Source: a virus. From it: a stretch of 11,077 bases of DNA. How positions within the stretch are numbered: the stretch's first letter is position 1; each line of letters opens with the position of its first letter. Where the stretch lies: UHGV virus genome UHGV-0128589; one strand, given 5' to 3'. Positions 1 to 11,077 of this stretch are shown here, piece after piece. The translations under genes and the position numbers were made by a program. The notes under the pieces were generated by a model. That model was given only the letters and a program-made list of their open reading frames with translations, had not been told where the DNA came from and did not search any database.

Positions 1-20
1 ACAGCAGAAAATTTGCGAGC

Positions 21-239
21 ATGATCGCAATTATTTCACTGCCAGGGATATCAATAGCTTCCAGTAAATCGCTACAGCAGGCAATTGCCAATATAAAAAT
101 CTGGCACAAGGGTGAACAGCGCGCGCCGCATAAGCCATTGTTATTGCTATACGTATTAGCGGGATACCTGAATGGACATCCGCGCCTTTTCGATTATTGT
201 AGTGGAACAGTCTACGAGGATGCAGTTCGAAGTGAGTAA
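21..239 (+). CDS. hypothetical protein, flanking DNA outside the satellite (possibly a gene fragment)
   Basis: 72-codon ORF from the ORF track; no motif I can name; lies left of the att-like repeat at 684-722. Confidence 0.3.
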   Translation: MIAIISLPGISIASSKSLQQAIANIKIWHKGEQRAPHKPLLLLYVLAGYLNGHPRLFDYCSGTVYEDAVRSE

Positions 240-262
240 GTAAAGGTTGCTGGAAACGATCA

Positions 263-481
263 ATGCCGCCATACAATGATTTTTTAGGATCAACAATGAG
301 TAATAAAAACTACGAAAGTCACCGCAAAGCGATTGTTAGTAAAGGTATACCACCCGCTCTATTAAATAGGCTCACCAATTCGGATGTTCAGGTGATCAAT
401 ACCTTCTTAACACGAGTGAGCAAACTGGAACTATCTCAACAAGAGAAAGACTGGATCATAAAAATCATCTCTATGGTTTAG
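263..481 (+). CDS. hypothetical protein, flanking DNA (start uncertain; internal ATG at 296 also possible)
   Basis: 72-codon ORF directly after the previous ORF on the same strand; no recognisable motif; the pair may be fragments of one disrupted gene. Confidence 0.3.
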   Translation: MPPYNDFLGSTMSNKNYESHRKAIVSKGIPPALLNRLTNSDVQVINTFLTRVSKLELSQQEKDWIIKIISMV

Positions 482-683
482 ACAATTTCAGCCTTGTAGC
501 CTTTCAAGGGTTTTGTGTGGGTACAAACATTATCGAATCGGGGTATAGCCGCAGCTGTAGCTGTATCCACATCAGTAAGTTGATGTAGGTTGACTTAGGT
601 TGAGCGAAAAATAGCGAAAAGCCTTGTGTGGCGCGGATTTCAGTCATAAAAAAACGTCCGTTGATGTCTATTGATGTTCCGAT

Positions 684-722
684 GGTGCGAAGGTGCGAAG
701 GTGCGAAGGCCGGACTCAAACC
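684..722. repeat. att-like degenerate copy of the tRNA-Leu 3-prime end (left boundary of the element), preceded by GGTGCGAA x3 tandem repeat
   Basis: ggtgcgaaggccggactcaaacc (700-722) matches tggtgccgaaggccggactcgaacc at 11024-11048 with one indel and one substitution; three tandem GGTGCGAA units at 684-707. Confidence 0.6.
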
Positions 723-772
723 ATCATGTAACACCATAAAATACAAGCAAAAAACATAAACTACACTTTAAA

Positions 773-1063: not shown

Positions 1064-3397
1064 TTATTTCGCTGTGGGGTCATCGCACTTCGGCAGCCAG
1101 TCGGCGTTGCTTTCTTCCCTGAGCGCAAGATTGGTCTGTATGCCCTGATTTTTACGGCGCTTCTCATAACTCAGTCCGTACTCTTTTAGCATCGCTGGCA
1201 GTCCCTTGCCGAACATGGTGAGGCTAAGAGTATTCTTGTAGCCGTGGGCCTCCATGTACGCCAGGTAGGCATGATAGAGGTAAAGTCGCGGCTGACGCGG
1301 AATGATGTTGGCATTGCCAATATACATACCCTCAGGTTCCGGCAGCGCCTCCAGATAGCCACAAAAATCAAATGTCGGGTCGGCGTCGCGCTTGATGCTG
1401 AGCGCCTCGTCGGAATTCTGCTGTGACTGGAGCAGTGTGCGCGCGGTCATCGGGTCGCTGAACTTCTGCATTAGCTGGCGCACAATGACGGCCAGCTCGC
1501 GGGCGATTTTGTTCTTAAGCTGCGGGTCGCGTTCTTCCGGGGCAATCTGCTCCGGGAAATGCAGAATCACCCGGCGACGGGAAACACCGCCGCTGCGGTC
1601 AGTAAAGCGCATCGGGTTATTGTTCACGGCCAGAATCACCGCCGGAATATGGGTGGAGTACGCATCCTTGTATTTCGGGTCTACCGATACCGCATCCCCG
1701 CCGGTGATGGCCTTGAGTCCGGCTCCGTCACCACTCCATTTTTCCTGGTCAGGCAGTCGAATCAGCGAGAAGCCAATCAGTGCGGCACGTTCACGCGGTG
1801 ATTCCAGCGTTTCGATGGTGGCCGACGTGGCGTTATCTTCCCCGGCAAGCATGGTCGCAATTTCGGCCAGAATACTTTTCCCGCTGCCGCCGGGCCCGGT
1901 CACCTCAAGAAAGAGCTGCCAGTCGTAGCGGTTCGCCAGCACCATAAACAGCGCGGCCAGAATCACATCGCGTTTTTCTGGTCTGCCACCGGCAGCACGG
2001 TCGAGCCAGCGCCAGAAATCCGGTGCATGGGTTTCCAGCGTTTCGCCCTCCACCGGCGGGGTAAAATCGACATCACAGAGTGTGCGCAGCCAGTGCGATT
2101 TATCATGCGGGTTGAATGTGCCGGTGGCGGTATCAAGTACGCCGTTGCGAAAGCCAATCAGACGCCGTGCCGGGGCGTCCTGCTGCGGAATAATCAGTTT
2201 CAGGGTCTCCACCACCGAGGCAATTTTTCCCGACGAGAACGGTGCGCGCAGACGCTGGAACAACCCGGCCACGTCGCGGGCAAAGTCCGACGGCGGAATG
2301 ATTTTCCATATCCCGGCCTCATAACGGGACAGGAGCTGGCCGTTCGCGTCCACGGCCAGCGCTTCGCCGTAATGCTCATGCACCCGCATCGCTTTTTCAC
2401 TGGTGCTCATGGCGGTAAATTCCGCCTCGCTCATGGTAGTGAAAGGACTGTCAGCCGGTGGCCGGATGGCCTCATAAATGGCTTTCCGCATCGCCTCCTC
2501 ACCTTTCTGTTCAAATGCGTCATTCCAGTCACCGAACACCGGCGGCAGGGCAACAATACCGTCACAGGCTTCTGCGGCCGCTGCGGCTTTACTCTGGCCG
2601 TCGCCGTTCAGGTCGCGGTCGGCGGCGAGGACAATCTGACAGGCCGGGTATTTCTGACGGGCAAGGCTCGCCAGAGAAAGGAGGTTTGCGGACGACAGTG
2701 CCACCATGACGGTTTCCCCGGTCAGGTGATGTACGGTGAGCGCGGTCGCATAGCCCTCCGCTATCCACAGCCGTTTTCCCGCCTGTTTTTTCCCTTCGAT
2801 GGTGTGGCACGCTCCTTTTACCGCCCCGCCTTTCAGGGTGCGTTTGAGACCCTCAGAATTGATGAGCTGAAGGTTAACCAGTGCATCGGTATTGTCATAC
2901 AGCGGGACAACCACATCACCGGCGCGGAACGTCACGCCGCCGGTTTTATGCACGGCCGTGAGCGTCAGACATTCCAGAGCGGGGAAGCCCTTGCGGGTCA
3001 GGTAGGCGTTGCCGCTGGCCGTGCGGGTTTTCTCCATCAGTCTGACGGCCAGCGTGGCCGCCGCTTTACGGTCTGCTTCGGTTTCAGCCTCTGCGGCCAC
3101 AATCACCTCCGGGGCAACCGGCGACAGGTTACCGGCGACGACATTCACCTTTTGGGCTGCCTCTGACGGATTAACGCCGAACACCTTTTCAACCAGTTTC
3201 AGGCCATCCCCTGCGCCGCACTGGTTACAGAACCACGTCCCGCGACCCTCTTTATCGTCAAACCGGAAACGGTCAGAACCGCCGCACACCGGGCAGGGCT
3301 GATGCCGGTTTTTAATGACCTTCACCCCCAGCGCCGGGAGAATGCGCGGCCAGTGGCCGCACGCCTGTTTTACGGTTTCCGTTACGTTCATTTTCAT
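1064..3397 (-). CDS. alpha: P4-type alpha protein: DNA primase / SF3 replicative helicase
   Basis: 777-aa ORF; N-terminal CxxC...CxxC zinc-binding primase region (CPVCGGSDRF...FCNQCGAG); Walker A P-loop GPGGSGKS in the C-terminal half; RBS GGGAGAA upstream; flanked by iterons, as for P4 alpha. Confidence 0.95.
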   Translation of the reverse strand: MKMNVTETVKQACGHWPRILPALGVKVIKNRHQPCPVCGGSDRFRFDDKEGRGTWFCNQCGAGDGLKLVEKVFGVNPSEAAQKVNVVAGNLSPVAPEVIVAAEAETEADRKAAATLAVRLMEKTRTASGNAYLTRKGFPALECLTLTAVHKTGGVTFRAGDVVVPLYDNTDALVNLQLINSEGLKRTLKGGAVKGACHTIEGKKQAGKRLWIAEGYATALTVHHLTGETVMVALSSANLLSLASLARQKYPACQIVLAADRDLNGDGQSKAAAAAEACDGIVALPPVFGDWNDAFEQKGEEAMRKAIYEAIRPPADSPFTTMSEAEFTAMSTSEKAMRVHEHYGEALAVDANGQLLSRYEAGIWKIIPPSDFARDVAGLFQRLRAPFSSGKIASVVETLKLIIPQQDAPARRLIGFRNGVLDTATGTFNPHDKSHWLRTLCDVDFTPPVEGETLETHAPDFWRWLDRAAGGRPEKRDVILAALFMVLANRYDWQLFLEVTGPGGSGKSILAEIATMLAGEDNATSATIETLESPRERAALIGFSLIRLPDQEKWSGDGAGLKAITGGDAVSVDPKYKDAYSTHIPAVILAVNNNPMRFTDRSGGVSRRRVILHFPEQIAPEERDPQLKNKIARELAVIVRQLMQKFSDPMTARTLLQSQQNSDEALSIKRDADPTFDFCGYLEALPEPEGMYIGNANIIPRQPRLYLYHAYLAYMEAHGYKNTLSLTMFGKGLPAMLKEYGLSYEKRRKNQGIQTNLALREESNADWLPKCDDPTAK

Positions 3398-5034: not shown

Positions 5035-5140
5035 GGGTGAACAGTAGTGAACAGTCAGTGAACAGTTACACCCTCAACTGTTCACCCTTTATCTTACTGT
5101 ATTAATTATCTTTTTCTTTTTAGTGAACAGTAGTGAATAG
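5035..5140. repeat. second iteron cluster of GTGAACAG/CTGTTCACC repeats (P4 ori/crr-type)
   Basis: gtgaacag at 5037-5044, 5047-5054, 5058-5065 and 5123-5130; ctgttcaccc at 5078-5087; gtgaatag at 5133-5140; about 4.1 kb from the cluster at 921-1012. Confidence 0.65.
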
Positions 5141-5215
5141 TTATAAGTAAAAAACAAACAGTGAGTAAGGTTTTCCTGAGACCTTTCTCTGGCCAGCCGG
5201 GTTTTAAGGTCTGTT

Positions 5216-5233: not shown

Positions 5234-5305
5234 ACGGCAATGAATCGTGTTGTTGTGTCTGGCGCGGCAGAATCTCTTCAGATTGAAACGAAGAGGAGAC
5301 CCGAC

Positions 5306-6043
5306 ATGACTCAGACCGCTGTTATTCCCGACTATCTTAAACCCGCAATGGAACACCTTGAAACTGCCCGGTCAGCGCATCTTGCCAATGCCAGTCGAAT
5401 GGATGAAACCACGGCTGCCATCAGCCAGGTAAAAGCACAAAAAAATGAACTGGAGCAGGAAAATGGCAATGATTCCGGTGCATGGCGCACCGCCTTTCGT
5501 GCCGGTGGTGCTGTGATTACTGACGAGCTGAAACAACGCCATATAGCGCGTGTAGCACGGCGTGAACTGGTACAGGAATGTGACAGCATGACAGAGGTAT
5601 TGTCTTTTGAGCTGGACAACCTAAAGGGAGCCTGTGACAGCACGGCCAGAGCGTACCGCCAGGCACATCACGGCGTCCTCAGCCAGTATGCAAAGCATGA
5701 GCTCGATGTTGCCCTGCGTGAAACCTGTGGTGCTCTCGTCAGGGCAATGAAACTTAACATACTGGTTCTGAATAACCCTCTTGCCAATACCATCGGCCAT
5801 CAGGGATATACCGAACCGGAAAAGGCTGTGATGCAGCAGGTTAAAGCGTGGCTTGAACAGGCAGTGAAGGGCTGCAACATCCGCCTGACCGATGAGCCGG
5901 TGCTGTTTAAAACAGGACTGTCGGCCTCCACGCTGCCTCATATGGAGTATGACGTTGCGGCCACGCCCGGCCAGCGTCAGGTGTGGTTCGAGAAAATGAA
6001 CAAACGTGAGTCTGACCTTAAGGCCCGGGGGTTACTGTCATGA
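5306..6043 (+). CDS. sid: Sid-like capsid size determination (external scaffold) protein
   Basis: 245-aa product from the internal ATG at 5306 with SD GAGGAG upstream; first gene of a sid-delta-psu arrangement; the ORF-track start at 5240 has no RBS. Confidence 0.8.
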   Translation: MTQTAVIPDYLKPAMEHLETARSAHLANASRMDETTAAISQVKAQKNELEQENGNDSGAWRTAFRAGGAVITDELKQRHIARVARRELVQECDSMTEVLSFELDNLKGACDSTARAYRQAHHGVLSQYAKHELDVALRETCGALVRAMKLNILVLNNPLANTIGHQGYTEPEKAVMQQVKAWLEQAVKGCNIRLTDEPVLFKTGLSASTLPHMEYDVAATPGQRQVWFEKMNKRESDLKARGLLS

Positions 6044-6285
6044 TGCGCTGCCCTTTCTGCCGCACGGCGGCCCATGTGCGCACCAGCCGCTATATGTCTG
6101 ACAGCGTCAAAGAGAGCTACCTGCAGTGCCAGAATGTGCACTGCTCGGCGACGTTCAAAACACATGAGTCGATTTTTGAAGTGATCCGCTCGCCGGGTGT
6201 CGATGAGAAACCCGCGCCGGTGCCGACAGCGTCCGTTGCCATCCGCAAGGTAAAAGGCTGCTACAGCTCACCGTTCCGCCATTAA
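6040..6285 (+). CDS. delta: Ogr/Delta-family zinc-finger late transcriptional activator (single domain)
   Basis: 81-aa ORF with CPFC...(21 residues)...CQNVHC zinc-finger spacing; start overlaps the sid stop (ATGA). Confidence 0.85.
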   Translation: MMRCPFCRTAAHVRTSRYMSDSVKESYLQCQNVHCSATFKTHESIFEVIRSPGVDEKPAPVPTASVAIRKVKGCYSSPFRH

Positions 6286-7238: not shown

Positions 7239-7619
7239 ATGCTAAATCATATTTATGGAATTGTTGGTATAGTTGGCACATTAGTTACGATTGTGACGAG
7301 TTACATCAGAAATCAAGAATTGTCGCAATGGTTCCTTGTATGTTCTGGTTGGCTTACGGCTCTATTGATAGGTTGGTTCACGCATAGAACTATTAAAATT
7401 CTAAGCAAAGATCACAAAGAAACCATCATTAGTAATGATGGTATAAAGCAAACGCTTATAGAGCGGAATGAAACATTAACCACACAACTTACGCATGCAT
7501 TAGAACAGAAAGAAAAAATGGAAGGAATCGCGGCTTATTTAGCAACTCAGAACCCACAAATTAACGCCATGCCTAGAGCCATCGCGCGACAAGAAAATAC
7601 TGAGCTAGGAGGTAATTAA
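7239..7619 (+). CDS. small two-transmembrane-helix protein with C-terminal charged/helical tail; first gene of the accessory operon
   Basis: 126-aa ORF; hydrophobic segments IYGIVGIVGTLVTIVTSYI and WFLVCSGWLTALLIGWF; RBS AAGAGAG 7 nt upstream; AT-rich codon usage unlike the core genes. Confidence 0.7.
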   Translation: MLNHIYGIVGIVGTLVTIVTSYIRNQELSQWFLVCSGWLTALLIGWFTHRTIKILSKDHKETIISNDGIKQTLIERNETLTTQLTHALEQKEKMEGIAAYLATQNPQINAMPRAIARQENTELGGN

Positions 7620-7620
7620 G

Positions 7621-8685
7621 ATGAAAGTAAATTTTGATAGTTATTCATATTATCCTGCATTAAGAACTCGTGCAGCTGAAATACTTGGCTTGAGTAAGCT
7701 TGCTCATGATAAGAAAGAGAAAGTACTTCCACTTATAACCTTAGGGAAATGGCCCCGCTCAGATGAAATTCAAGTTTCTCTTGATAAGAGTCTGGAAGCA
7801 ATGAATAACTTGCCTTTTATTCTGGACGTTACTCAAGAGAACAAGCATCATTGCGCATCAAGCTTTGATCTTCTATCTTCCGAAAATAATTTTTCAAACT
7901 GGATAGCTTTCTGCTCTAAGAATGAGAATATTATCCCCGTAGTTCAAATGCCTGAATCTGCAAGATTAAGGGATATAGTACAGCAAGCAAGAATACTTGA
8001 AGAAAATAAAGGTTCCATTGCATTTCGCATAAAGAACCTTAACACTGATATAAATAAAACAATAGCATCACTTGTGTCTCTCGACTCCCCTGAAAATGCG
8101 GTTATATTCATAGACTTGGGTTACATTCGCGGACATGTCTCAGCAATGACGTCTGCTGCCATAAGTGCAATCAACCAAATAAGGACAGAAATTCCTGAAG
8201 CTATAATTAGTGTACTGTCGACTAGTTTCCCAAGTTCGGTCGCAAACTTTGCAGGAGAAAATGGTCAATCTGGTTATATTGACATTATGGAAAGAGAATT
8301 CCACCAAACTATTGGTGGTCGAGGAGTATCTATATACGGAGATCATAGTTCAATTCACTCTGTTGTATATGATGATGTTGGTGGACGTTATGTCCCAAGA
8401 ATTGACATTGCATTAGATGATGCTTGGTTTTTTGAGAGAAGACCAGGACTTGATAGTAAAGGCTATATAGAAGCAGCAAGAGCGATTCTTAAAAGATACC
8501 CTAATTATCTTGAAGAAGAATCCTGGGGTGCGCTGATGATTAAAAACGCTGCATCAGGCGATATTGCTGGTATGGGGAGTCCCGCTAAATGGATTTCTGT
8601 GCGCGTGAACCTTCATATAACAAAGCAAATTGAGCTATCAGAAGCACTTAAAACAGATTACGATCCTGAAGAGGATTTCTTCTAA
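7621..8685 (+). CDS. uncharacterised 354-aa protein, second gene of the accessory operon; function unknown
   Basis: Long ORF starting 1 nt after the upstream stop; strong SD AGGAGGT 9 nt upstream, embedded in the last codons of the upstream gene; no Walker or other catalytic motif recognisable by eye. Confidence 0.8.
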   Translation: MKVNFDSYSYYPALRTRAAEILGLSKLAHDKKEKVLPLITLGKWPRSDEIQVSLDKSLEAMNNLPFILDVTQENKHHCASSFDLLSSENNFSNWIAFCSKNENIIPVVQMPESARLRDIVQQARILEENKGSIAFRIKNLNTDINKTIASLVSLDSPENAVIFIDLGYIRGHVSAMTSAAISAINQIRTEIPEAIISVLSTSFPSSVANFAGENGQSGYIDIMEREFHQTIGGRGVSIYGDHSSIHSVVYDDVGGRYVPRIDIALDDAWFFERRPGLDSKGYIEAARAILKRYPNYLEEESWGALMIKNAASGDIAGMGSPAKWISVRVNLHITKQIELSEALKTDYDPEEDFF

Positions 8686-8710
8686 AAAATAAGGGAGGGC
8701 AGCCTCCCTT
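8683..8710 (-). terminator. terminator hairpin between the convergent accessory genes (strongest for the minus-strand gene)
   Basis: aagggagg-gcag-cctccctt perfect 8-bp stem; on the minus strand it is followed by ATTTTTT. Confidence 0.55.
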
Positions 8711-9503
8711 ATCGCACGACCCTTTTCAAAACTTTGATGGGAGTGATACTCCCAACCTCTCCGTGCTTTCTCATAAACCCCTCAATATCAACTGTATAAA
8801 AATCATCTAATTTTTCATCAGTATTATCTTCGAAATCTTTAAAGTGATTATGTTCCCGTCTCTTTTTTGATTTACTTAACAAAGTCAAATCGTTAGCATT
8901 CGATAATTCGCTACCTGCTAATTTCTTCAAGTAATCATCAGAAGTTTCTTTATAGCGTTGCTTAATTGCTTTAAGCGCAAAGTCTCTAATTCTAGATAGG
9001 GGAATTTGTTCAGCTATACGCTCTAAAGCCTCACGACCAGACTCGAGTAAAAACTTTTTCCCATTTTCAACAAGAAGTAATTGCAACTCTTTTTTCAGTA
9101 AGAAATTAATATAAACCTTCTTATTACCGAGTACTGCCGTACGCCCACGCTGAACTATTTTAAAACGAATGCCTTTACTAGTATTTATGTATTCAATAAC
9201 ACCAACATCTGATGTTACTTTCTTCGCAATTTCATAAGTAAATTTTGGGGCACAAACAACAGTTACCTTTTCAAAACGAGATGTAAAGGTTTCTAACTGA
9301 CCATCTAATCTTTTAAGAGAGTCAAAATCACTTTTTATTTCAAAAGCTTGCAAGTGTCCATTCGCAACGGCCAGATCAGCGCGGCGACTCCAATTCGCTA
9401 CAACCATTTCATTAATAATGGTTGCGTTCTCTAACAAGCCTTTTTTAAAAAGCCAGTCAATAAATGCGACTTTTACATCTTGCTCTCTTAATAAAAATGA
9501 CAT
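8709..9503 (-). CDS. stand-alone protein with N-terminal PD-(D/E)xK nuclease-like domain and charged helical C-terminal region
   Basis: 264-aa ORF; motif order E7 ... RADLAV (D42) ... AFEIKSD (E54-x-K56) fits the PD-(D/E)xK core; own extended -10 promoter and own terminator; very AT-rich. Confidence 0.8.
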   Translation of the reverse strand: MSFLLREQDVKVAFIDWLFKKGLLENATIINEMVVANWSRRADLAVANGHLQAFEIKSDFDSLKRLDGQLETFTSRFEKVTVVCAPKFTYEIAKKVTSDVGVIEYINTSKGIRFKIVQRGRTAVLGNKKVYINFLLKKELQLLLVENGKKFLLESGREALERIAEQIPLSRIRDFALKAIKQRYKETSDDYLKKLAGSELSNANDLTLLSKSKKRREHNHFKDFEDNTDEKLDDFYTVDIEGFMRKHGEVGSITPIKVLKRVVR

Positions 9504-9594: not shown

Positions 9595-10872
9595 CTAGAT
9601 GTCATTTATTTTACTCCCACAGTCATACGGTGATATATACTCCTTATTATTTAGATCTAAATAATCAGCCCACCACTGAACCATTTTGCGCCTTTCATCT
9701 AAATGTTCTGATGTATGAATATAAGCAGCCCTAACGCCATTACGTTCTGTGTGACTCAACTGACGTTCTATAGCGTCATCGCTCCATAATCCTGACTCAC
9801 CCAGCGCACCACGGGCCATCGTTCTAAATCCATGCCCGCAAACTTCAGTTTTCGTGTCATAGCCCATCGCACGCAATGCGCTGTTTACCGTGTTTTCACT
9901 CATAACCTTAGTTGCGTCATGATCCCCCGGGAACAGCAGCTCTTTATCACCACTAATTTGCTTGAGCTGCTCTAATAAAACCATCGCCTGCCGACTGAGA
10001 GGAACAATATGCTCCTCTTTCATTTTCATGCCACGATACGAGTAACGCACGCCCTTAATTTCTTCTCGCTTTGCAGGTATACGCCAAAGAGATTTATCGA
10101 AGTCGAACTCATCCCAACGCGCGAAACGCAACTCACTGGAACGCACAAAAGTTAGTAAGGAAAGCTCAACCGCGATCCGTGTCATTACACGGCCACGATA
10201 TGCAGCAAGACGTGCAAGAAACTCAGGGAACCGGCTAGAGGGTAAAGCGGGGTAATGTCGCGCTTTGGTTGTCGATAGCGCACCGGCCATATCACTGGCT
10301 GGATTTGAGTCGATGTAATCGTTCTGTACTGCATAACGCATGATAGCCGTGACACGCTGCTGAAGACGCTGTGCGACGTCATGCTTACCACTTGCATCAA
10401 CTTTTTTAATCGGGGCTAACAGGTGGCTAGTCTTGAGCTGGCGAATGTCGGACGAACCAATATGAGGGAAGATATAAAGCTCAAGATAGCGAAGAACGCG
10501 CGATCGATGGTCTTCACTCCAGCGCTTGTTACTGGCGTGCCATTCACGAGCAATGGTTTCGAAAGTATATGCCCCCGAATTCTCGGCCTGAGCTTCTTTC
10601 TGTTCGGCTTTTGGGTCAATGCCCTGCACTAGCAGCTTTTTAGCTTCATCGCGCTTTGCTCTTGCCTGAGCAAGCGTCACAGTAGGCCAAACACCAAAAG
10701 CGAGGCGATCCTCTTTTTTGTCTGAGGGGCGTCTGTATTTCATGCGCCAGTATTTAGAACCCTTAGCCGAAATCTCGAGATACAAACCGCCGCCATCGGC
10801 CATTTTGTAGGTTTTTTCTTTTGGCTTTGCGGTCTCGACCTGTCTGGCGTTGAGCTTCATTTGGGGGCACAT
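9595..10872 (-). CDS. int: P4-type tyrosine integrase / site-specific recombinase
   Basis: 425-aa ORF; N-terminus with the ...KTYKMADGGGLYLEI... motif typical of P4-family integrases; C-terminal HGFRTMARG and downstream tyrosine (VRAAYIH); about 150 bp from the tRNA 3-prime end. Start may be the ATG at 10860 (MKLNARQ). Confidence 0.95.
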   Translation of the reverse strand: MCPQMKLNARQVETAKPKEKTYKMADGGGLYLEISAKGSKYWRMKYRRPSDKKEDRLAFGVWPTVTLAQARAKRDEAKKLLVQGIDPKAEQKEAQAENSGAYTFETIAREWHASNKRWSEDHRSRVLRYLELYIFPHIGSSDIRQLKTSHLLAPIKKVDASGKHDVAQRLQQRVTAIMRYAVQNDYIDSNPASDMAGALSTTKARHYPALPSSRFPEFLARLAAYRGRVMTRIAVELSLLTFVRSSELRFARWDEFDFDKSLWRIPAKREEIKGVRYSYRGMKMKEEHIVPLSRQAMVLLEQLKQISGDKELLFPGDHDATKVMSENTVNSALRAMGYDTKTEVCGHGFRTMARGALGESGLWSDDAIERQLSHTERNGVRAAYIHTSEHLDERRKMVQWWADYLDLNNKEYISPYDCGSKINDI

Positions 10873-10910
10873 TTCTAATCGAAGTTAAGATGCCCCCAAT
10901 TATGCCCCCA
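10862..10910. repeat. TGCCCCCA repeats (two direct, one inverted) at the int start, candidate integrase-binding or autoregulatory sites
   Basis: tgggggca at 10862-10869 (inverted, overlapping the first int codons); tgccccca at 10891-10898 and 10903-10910. Confidence 0.4.
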
Positions 10911-11023
10911 ATGACATCAGGATTTCAACGGACAACCTCGGACGACTCAGGACGTAAAAATCGCTGCAAGCATTGATTTTTAAGGGATAATTGGACTTTC
11001 TCGGATGGTCTTGGAAGTACTTA

Positions 11024-11077
11024 TGGTGCCGAAGGCCGGACTCGAACCGGCACGTATTTCTACGGTTGATTTTGAAT
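11024..11077 (-). tRNA. leuX: tRNA-Leu(CAA), leuX-type, 3-prime portion only (truncated by the window edge)
   Basis: Reverse complement reads ATTCAAAATCAACCGTAGAAATACGTGCCGGTTCGAGTCCGGCCTTCGGCACCA: anticodon loop with CAA, variable arm, T-arm GGTTCGAGTCC and acceptor end with CCA; matches E. coli leuX as I recall it. Confidence 0.85.

Follow-up and report, generated by a model that had tools for sequence, protein, structure and literature searches.

The stretch of DNA analysed here (the window; 11,077 nucleotides) carries near its left end, at 683-722, an imperfect copy of the tRNA gene end found at its right end. The question raised by this locus is what kind of boundary the imperfect copy marks, and whether its defects belong to the element that it borders or are older than that element. 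As read from the window, the site consists of T683, GGTGCGAA at 684-691, 692-699 and 700-707, GGCCGGACTC at 708-717 and AAACC at 718-722. The features on which the argument depends are listed below.

496..682, no strand assigned: what is left, after loss of the integrase gene, of the integrase-proximal arm of an older P4-family ('X-type') leuX island
683..707, plus strand: displaced (resident) copy of the extreme leuX 3' end, T plus three GGTGCGAA units; a tandem repeat of variable copy number
704..717, plus strand: 14-bp block CGAAGGCCGGACTC, identical to leuX 11030-11043; putative strand-exchange segment of the P4-type integrase
718..722, plus strand: AAACC, first bases of the satellite's integrase-distal attP arm, by alignment with the P4 attP core and flank in X51522
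773..796, plus strand: P4-type integrase arm-binding repeat pair GTGCCCCCTTTT GTGCCCCCACCA, at the P4-equivalent distance from the core, where P4 annotates an 'attP arm sequence repeat'
1064..3397, minus strand: P4 alpha-type primase-helicase, the satellite replication gene (Pfam Zn_Ribbon_Prim, Toprim_3, D5_N and Pox_D5; DNA match to P4 alpha)
9595..10872, minus strand: P4-type tyrosine integrase, 96% identical to P4 Int over 414 aa (Pfam Arm-DNA-bind_3, Phage_int_M and Phage_integrase)
10890..10913, plus strand: P4-type integrase arm-binding repeat pair ATGCCCCCAATT ATGCCCCCAATG in the integrase-proximal arm, from pattern matches and the P4 annotation
11024..11077, minus strand: 3' 54 nt of leuX (tRNA-Leu CAA), cut by the end of the window and identical to E. 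coli leuX in EC01307 and K-12

Positions 684-707 are three perfect GGTGCGAA units, each of which is the C-less form of GGTGCCGAA. Tandem Repeats Finder places the repeat at 680-709 with a period of 8, 3.8 copies and 95% matches, a call in which the imperfect flank unit CGATGGTG makes up the extra partial copy. The 24-mer formed by the three units occurs once in the window and not at all in 200 shuffles. Alignment of the left copy, TGGTGC-GAAGGCCGGACTCAAACC, with TGGTGCCGAAGGCCGGACTCGAACC at 11024-11048 reveals one 1-nt gap and one G>A. The missing C lies at TGGTGC^CGAAGG, and in the left copy A replaces G at CTC[G/A]AAC. The alignment therefore confirms the first-pass annotation in its description of the site, a threefold repeat with one indel and one substitution relative to the tRNA end. 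The longest perfect block common to both ends is the 14-bp CGAAGGCCGGACTC (704-717 and 11030-11043), which has two matches in the window and none in 200 shuffles, and which is unchanged in every junction aligned. When the last unit and GGCCGGACTC (within 683-717) are compared with the P4 core, 19 of 20 positions match with a 1-nt gap. A minus-strand ORF at 504-746 that spans the site was set aside as lacking support.

At the other end, the 54 nt at 11024-11077 agree at every position with the start of the reverse complement of E. coli leuX, and 11024-11043 is an intact 20-bp P4 core, TGGTGCCGAAGGCCGGACTC, inside that gene. ARAGORN, run on the whole window, found no tRNA because the end of the window cuts leuX, which was recognised instead by its identity to leuX at other loci. 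Direct copies of the P4 core are thus present at both ends of the element, one of them within the leuX 3' end. A P4-family tyrosine integrase with all three integrase domains adjoins the tRNA-proximal junction. Arm-type repeat pairs lie on both sides of the core at P4-like spacing (773-796 and 10890-10913, compared with the P4 annotation), and the search for such repeats gave 4 matches where 0.14 were expected by chance. The core gene set of a P4-like satellite is present (int, alpha, psu, the sid/delta region and the ash/epsilon region); Pfam detects the alpha domains, Psu, Phage_ASH and DUF5375 (P4 ORF106), and sid and delta are putatively assigned to 5240-6285 from position and size only. 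The P4 record (X51522) has the 20-bp attP core TGGTGCCGAAGGCCGGACTC followed by AAACATCAAAA, with 12-bp arm-repeat pairs on both sides, and P4 attP reads TGGTGCCGAAGGCCGGACTCAAACATC. The two identity blocks are 10,326 bp apart, which is the predicted size of the excised circle. As side observations, the cargo slot of the satellite at 7239-9503 contains the P4 gop-beta-cII module (PADLOC: gop 5.7e-73, beta 3.2e-188, cll 1.5e-116), the same anti-phage/exclusion locus that P4 itself carries, and short tandem or clustered repeats of the TGTTCAC type at 920-937, 5037-5066 and 5121-5141 resemble the P4 ori/crr type-1 repeats.

It is very likely that 683-722 is the integrase-distal prophage junction (a 'displaced tRNA fragment') of a 10.3-kb P4-like satellite in leuX. 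We hold with equally strong confidence that the junction is a composite of two histories, its right part derived from the satellite attP and its left part resident in the chromosome. For annotation, the ends of the satellite may be fixed at 683/718 and 11043.

The right part accounts for the substitution, which had been taken as degeneration. P4 attP itself carries that A, reading ...GGACTCAAACATC / CTCAAAC at the G>A position. Since P4 attP has A there, the difference is not decay; it is where the native attP and attB sequences first diverge, and the DNA of the satellite arm begins at it. The right part of the junction, from about 708 and certainly from 718, would have been brought in by the satellite attP.

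The left part has a wide distribution. At least 80% of window 600-722 is present in 780 of 5426 complete E. coli genomes, and in every case examined the same flank carries the C-less core and the repeat, with the sequence changing directly after the core. Homology to hundreds of E. coli genomes crosses the repeat and breaks at 717-722; matches at 99% identity or more stop at window 722-734, with other DNA beyond. The proposal that a real island boundary lies here is upheld by this break, together with the start of P4 homology at the core. The exact junction of the window is found in no genome of the 5426-genome E. coli collection. The relic has at least seven different elements as right-hand partners:

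the window's P4-like satellite, in the window
a P4-identical arm, in EC556
a DUF262/DUF3696 island, in 120899
a CbtA/YeeU island, in YZMc17-1 and NCTC9082
a restriction/CbtA island, in Combat13F7
a fosA7.5 island, in 258E
the T arm and variable arm of leuX itself, then a phage, in strains 582 and 361

With the deletion and the repeat shared by about 780 genomes, next to seven or more partners, both are evidently older than this integration. The indel and the repeat had been read as a defect of this prophage, a claim that fails because both belong to the resident half, common to about 780 genomes and to many right-hand elements. The left half appears to be resident and to have served many elements one after another, and the deletion and repeat appear to be an old, inherited chromosomal scar, not damage specific to this element. 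Mismatches at the boundaries of leuX islands would then be of two kinds, native attP/attB difference and inherited chromosomal scar. A contig labelled as an uncultured Lachnospiraceae MAG (L033) also has the E. coli-type flank, with at least four repeat copies and the CbtA-island arm, and is probably a mis-binned Escherichia contig.

The number of repeat units is informative about their origin. Two copies are present in NCTC9082, on the same flank as in the window, three in the window, 120899, EC556 and 582, and four in YZMc17-1 and Combat13F7. Strain 258E has a mutated two-copy form, and a related, diverged arm that is about 80% identical (ESY003, O157) has a single copy. The commonest allele has three copies, with 594 records at 99% identity or more versus 132 in the 90-95% band, which is the band that holds the two- and four-copy forms. 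Thus, perfect head-to-tail units vary in number between otherwise identical loci. In NCTC9082 and YZMc17-1 copy number differs, two versus four, beside the same CbtA/YeeU island arm, so that it can evidently change without a change of element, as fits slippage and not serial recombination. This comparison points to replication slippage over repeated recombination as the source of the repeat; the first-pass annotation had offered both, and only its first suggestion is favoured by the two- and four-copy forms beside one arm. An independent 8-bp repeat, GGTGATTT x3, is found in Klebsiella sp. MISC125 (stretch L058, ~720-790) directly to the left of the same C-less core, and K. oxytoca (L083) has one GGTGATTT copy. 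The Klebsiella and E. coli repeats have equal periods and different unit boundaries.

The flank to which the repeat is attached has a history of its own. The arm at 496-682 holds GTTGAYG-type repeats and, on the minus strand at ~648-669, a degenerate copy of the hairpin and U-run that terminate leuX transcripts in K-12. The window arm is built like the K-12 leuX trailer upstream of intB, whose hairpin and U-run are the experimentally verified leuX terminator (PMC2811032). Elsewhere the counterpart arm is the ~190 nt between a P4-family integrase, 56% identical to the window Int, and leuX or a leuX relic, and the homology begins directly after the start codon of that integrase. The window arm is 79.5% identical over 210 nt to the arm of ESY003 (integrase pseudogene to core) and 76% identical to that of EC01307 (intact integrase to intact leuX). 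A tblastn search of window 1-700 found no integrase remnant. Thus, 496-683 is best read as the integrase-proximal arm of a P4-family island that is older, has decayed and no longer has its integrase. That the flank is core chromosome was ruled out by the presence of the same arm between an integrase and an intact leuX. The DNA to the left of 684 had been placed outside any island; 496-683 belongs instead to this older arm. The window would then be a stack, made up of an old integrase-less island remnant, a displaced tRNA end, a P4-like satellite and leuX. Island callers that need a perfect direct repeat will misplace the boundary at 683-722. To the left of the old arm are a truncated fragment of a phosphorothioated-DNA-binding restriction endonuclease at 54-203, named from matching E. 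coli annotations, and a 72-aa ORF at 263-481 with no Pfam match; further left in related genomes are an HNH endonuclease, a truncated nanS and nanM.

A simple sequence of events would produce this arrangement. The left part (683-707) would be the former functional 3' end of leuX, displaced from the gene by the arrival of a later element. It would stay linked to whatever adjoins it on the left, here the older integrase-less P4-family arm. The displaced end, now silent, would have lost one C and then grown its 8-bp unit by replication slippage. In this arm the C deletion would have created the near-repeat CGATGGTG/CGAAGG, which is a plausible seed for the slippage. The relic would since have been inherited with its flank, while the right-hand elements turned over through integrase crossovers inside CGAAGGCCGGACTC.

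Where the crossover falls may be judged from natural recombinants. Three E. coli genomes (702/18, BS-04 and O111:H21 15A) have a single leuX, full-length and with the C-less end, and the relic arm follows it directly downstream. This arm is of the K-12 type in 702/18 and BS-04, where an integrase pseudogene accompanies it, and of a third type in O111:H21 15A. The three-copy relic of strains 582 and 361 runs into the T arm and variable arm of leuX. Because C-less or repeat-bearing left halves are joined to the body of leuX in these five strains, the crossover would lie to the right of the C deletion, and because the G/A position follows the element, it would lie to the left of 718. These limits suggest that the P4-family crossover takes place within CGAAGGCCGGACTC, in agreement with the 'junction between T and acceptor stems' described as a subsite of tRNA-targeting integrases in the Islander paper (PMC4383910). 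The single leuX of 702/18, BS-04 and O111:H21 15A (~2500-2583 in stretches L122, L123 and L124) is 84 nt long, with an acceptor 3' strand that lacks the C, and is still annotated as tRNA-Leu. The C-less leuX genes of these strains resemble what a P4-family element would leave behind on excising naturally from a C-less relic. In EC17CM2 the same arm and the same P4 arm enclose a core that is intact, as expected of a fresh integration.

If the satellite were to excise in the same way, Int, together with Vis, would recombine 704-717 with 11030-11043 and free a 10,326-bp circle with an intact, P4-like attP, predicted to read ...GTACTTATGGTGCCGAAGGCCGGACTCAAACCATCA.... The emptied site would consist of the flank, T(GGTGCGAA)x3 and GGCCGGACTCGAACCGG..., so that leuX would end ...CCTTCGCACCTTCGCACCTTCGCACCATCGG, its acceptor 3' strand shorter by one base and its end present in three tandem copies. 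These steps of satellite excision are inferred by comparison of genomes. Intact leuX scores 59.4 bits and the C-less gene 45.5 bits against the Rfam tRNA model, and ARAGORN can fold the modelled excision products only if the acceptor stem is shifted and contains mismatches. Excision here is thus predicted to leave a damaged leuX, and a cell that lost the satellite would probably be left without a normal tRNA-Leu(CAA). In strain 536 this tRNA has reportedly been linked to fimbriation and virulence. A multi-copy relic on a complete leuX is present in none of the 5426 E. coli genomes, so that the multi-copy allele may be a poorer substrate than the one-copy form. The mismatches may, as the first-pass annotation suggested, lower the efficiency of excision. 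Nevertheless, the site has clearly stayed usable, given that elements turned over on it, that the C-less relic is joined to full leuX in three natural strains and that PAI II536, with a distal repeat still more truncated, excises and re-integrates experimentally (PMC3202238). In E. coli 582 (stretch L093, 3530-3600) the leuX 3' fragment with the three-copy repeat is a longer one, displaced by a prophage that has an integrase of its own. The arm of this phage (TCGTTCGCTTG...) is found again in Pseudenterobacter (L072), where the adjoining fragments are C-less, and in an IMG/VR contig (L116), where the adjoining fragment is intact.

These results bear on two other explanations of the left copy. 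It might be the prophage's own att, decayed since integration by indel, substitution and slippage, which would make the satellite excision-defective. The left copy does differ from the tRNA end, a silent copy would be free to mutate, and there are no multi-copy excision products among the 5426 genomes. We regard this explanation as very improbable, however, since the same deletion and repeat recur on the same flank beside at least seven unrelated partners in about 780 genomes, the supposed substitution is how P4 attP natively reads, recombination on C-less relics has taken place in nature, and PAI II536, which has a shorter repeat of 18 bp, excises and re-integrates (PMC3202238). Alternatively, the 8-bp units themselves might have been made by the integrase, through repeated or aberrant recombination or fill-in of a staggered cut, and not by slippage. 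A period of 8 is within the range of the overlap regions of tyrosine recombinases, and all the small lesions of the relics cluster just to the left of CGAAGG, namely the C deletion, a GC deletion in strain 536, the present repeat and GGTGATTT x3 in Klebsiella sp. MISC125. But tyrosine recombinases are conservative, two and four copies occur beside one and the same element, the Klebsiella repeat has other unit boundaries, and the near-repeat CGATGGTG/CGAAGG, already in place, accounts for ordinary slippage. Manufacture of the units by the integrase is therefore extremely improbable, and slippage on an inherited relic is the reading that we adopt.

The C deletion itself is not confined to this flank. 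An exact-pattern scan for the C-less core gave 81 stretches from about 80 Enterobacterales species, nearly all with one copy and with many types of flank and arm; in about 30 of the 81, ~200 nt separate the core from a P4-family integrase, or what remains of one, on its left. Junctions with the P4 arm are C-less in 10 of 10 cases, on five flank types, and so are three of four second cores of P4-like proviruses in IMG/VR, the fourth (L120) reading GAGTGCGAAGG, C-less with a further change; in both counts the search patterns left that base unconstrained. Intact distal cores also occur on the same arm pairs (EC17CM2 and L095-L097). Within E. coli, the same 1-nt deletion is found on at least three different arm lineages, three arm lineages each have both alleles, and all but three of the 5426 genomes keep an intact leuX. 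That the deletion represents decay specific to E. coli was ruled out by the scan of species genomes, and inspection of the sequence revealed no quasi-palindrome or direct repeat behind the specific loss of this C. A full-length tRNA-Leu(CAA) with a C-less 3' end is present in Pantoea eucrina (stretch L032, 2010-2093); its 5' acceptor strand, GCCGGAG, pairs poorly with that end, and there is no integrase nearby.

Recurrence of one 1-nt deletion on at least three E. coli arm lineages and in about 80 species makes simple neutral decay a poor fit, and neutral decay of a silent copy alone does not readily explain a single dominant lesion. One way to account for it would be that incoming elements carry the deletion. 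Their attP would lack the C, the crossover would fall in TGGTG, the displaced copy would be derived from the element and leuX would never be at risk. This would agree with the uniformly C-less P4-arm junctions on five flank types, with the second cores in IMG/VR, GAGTGCGAAGG included, with the C-less state of P4-type proximal arms displaced by other P4-family islands (L011 and L054) and with the intact copies at the tRNA. On the other hand, the C is present in P4 attP, the core is intact on the same arm pair in EC17CM2, and the repeat stays with its flank across seven partners. Moreover, C-less or repeat-bearing ends are contiguous with the body of leuX in five E. coli strains and in L014, L072, L086 and L059, which needs a crossover to the right of the deletion. 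As a general rule, an element-borne deletion is ruled out by P4 attP, by EC17CM2 and by the C-less and repeat-bearing ends that are joined to the tRNA body; as the source of the deletion here it is very unlikely. We return, therefore, to a deletion that resides in the chromosome.

The dominance of the lesion may reflect a retention bias where loss of the element exposes a damaged leuX, or damage at the integrase's left cleavage position. The former can be put as a tentative proposal, that the broken displaced fragment acts as a lock. A resident half that cannot rebuild a normal leuX would cause the element with the intact 3' end to be retained. Under the same proposal it is possible, although we consider it doubtful, that excision of the element that supplies the intact 3' end is selected against. 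In a variant of this reading, the deletion may be made preferentially at the left cleavage position of the integrase. If true, the lock would explain why C-less relics are almost always occupied (three bare C-less leuX genes in 5426 genomes and no multi-copy ones), why elements turn over on the same relic and why the same 1-nt deletion dominates the distal junctions of P4-family elements across Enterobacterales. The recurrent C-less allele thus bears on the fixation of islands that target tRNA genes. Otherwise the site is of an ordinary kind, and only this allele and the possible lock exceed routine annotation.

Comparison with known systems places the locus. The att site of phage P4 (X51522, X05947) shares the target leuX, the 20-bp core that is intact on the tRNA side of the window, the post-core CTCAAAC and the arm-repeat pairs at equal spacing, and the integrases are 96% identical. 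In contrast to P4, the distal core in the window lacks one C and is accompanied by three tandem GGTGCGAA units, P4 attP has AAACA where the window has AAACC at 718-722, past 722 the window arm bears only a loose resemblance to P4 (about 67% identity), and the flank is an older island arm and not the K-12 arrangement.

PAI II536 of E. coli 536 is likewise an island with a P4-family integrase at leuX, and its distal repeat is truncated at exactly the same place. Its distal end, TGGTCGAAGGCCGGACTCGAAC (stretch L100, ~1890-1925, reverse strand), has a 2-nt deletion at the spot of the 1-nt deletion and reads TGGT--CGAAGGCCGGACTCGAAC, more truncated than that of the window. This relic lies ~700 bp beyond the published end of the island, and there is no core copy at the published end itself. 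Blum et al. 1994 are said to have described an '18-bp direct repeat' for PAI II536 and the loss of leuX on excision. Experimentally, the island excises and re-integrates, and re-integration in the deletion mutant 'restores the complete tRNA gene' (PMC3202238). It differs from the present element in being a 100-kb pathogenicity island and not a satellite, in its 2-nt deletion, in having no tandem repeat and in its other flank arm.

The leuX/intB locus of K-12 (KpLE2, 'PR-Y') provides the closest picture of the older arm, since the window arm is of the same family, with the hairpin, the U-run and an integrase ~200 nt away. In K-12, however, the arm abuts a functional tRNA gene, the core is intact and intB is kept as a pseudogene, whereas in the window the arm is displaced, with a degenerate core and its integrase lost. 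Finally, the locus follows the pattern described by Islander (PMC4383910), in which the ends of an island are recognised by a regenerated tRNA gene and a displaced 3' fragment that share one orientation, and successive islands stack in tandem arrays at one tRNA gene. It departs from those arrays in that the inner, older island has no integrase and its fragment is a short tandem repeat of variable number.
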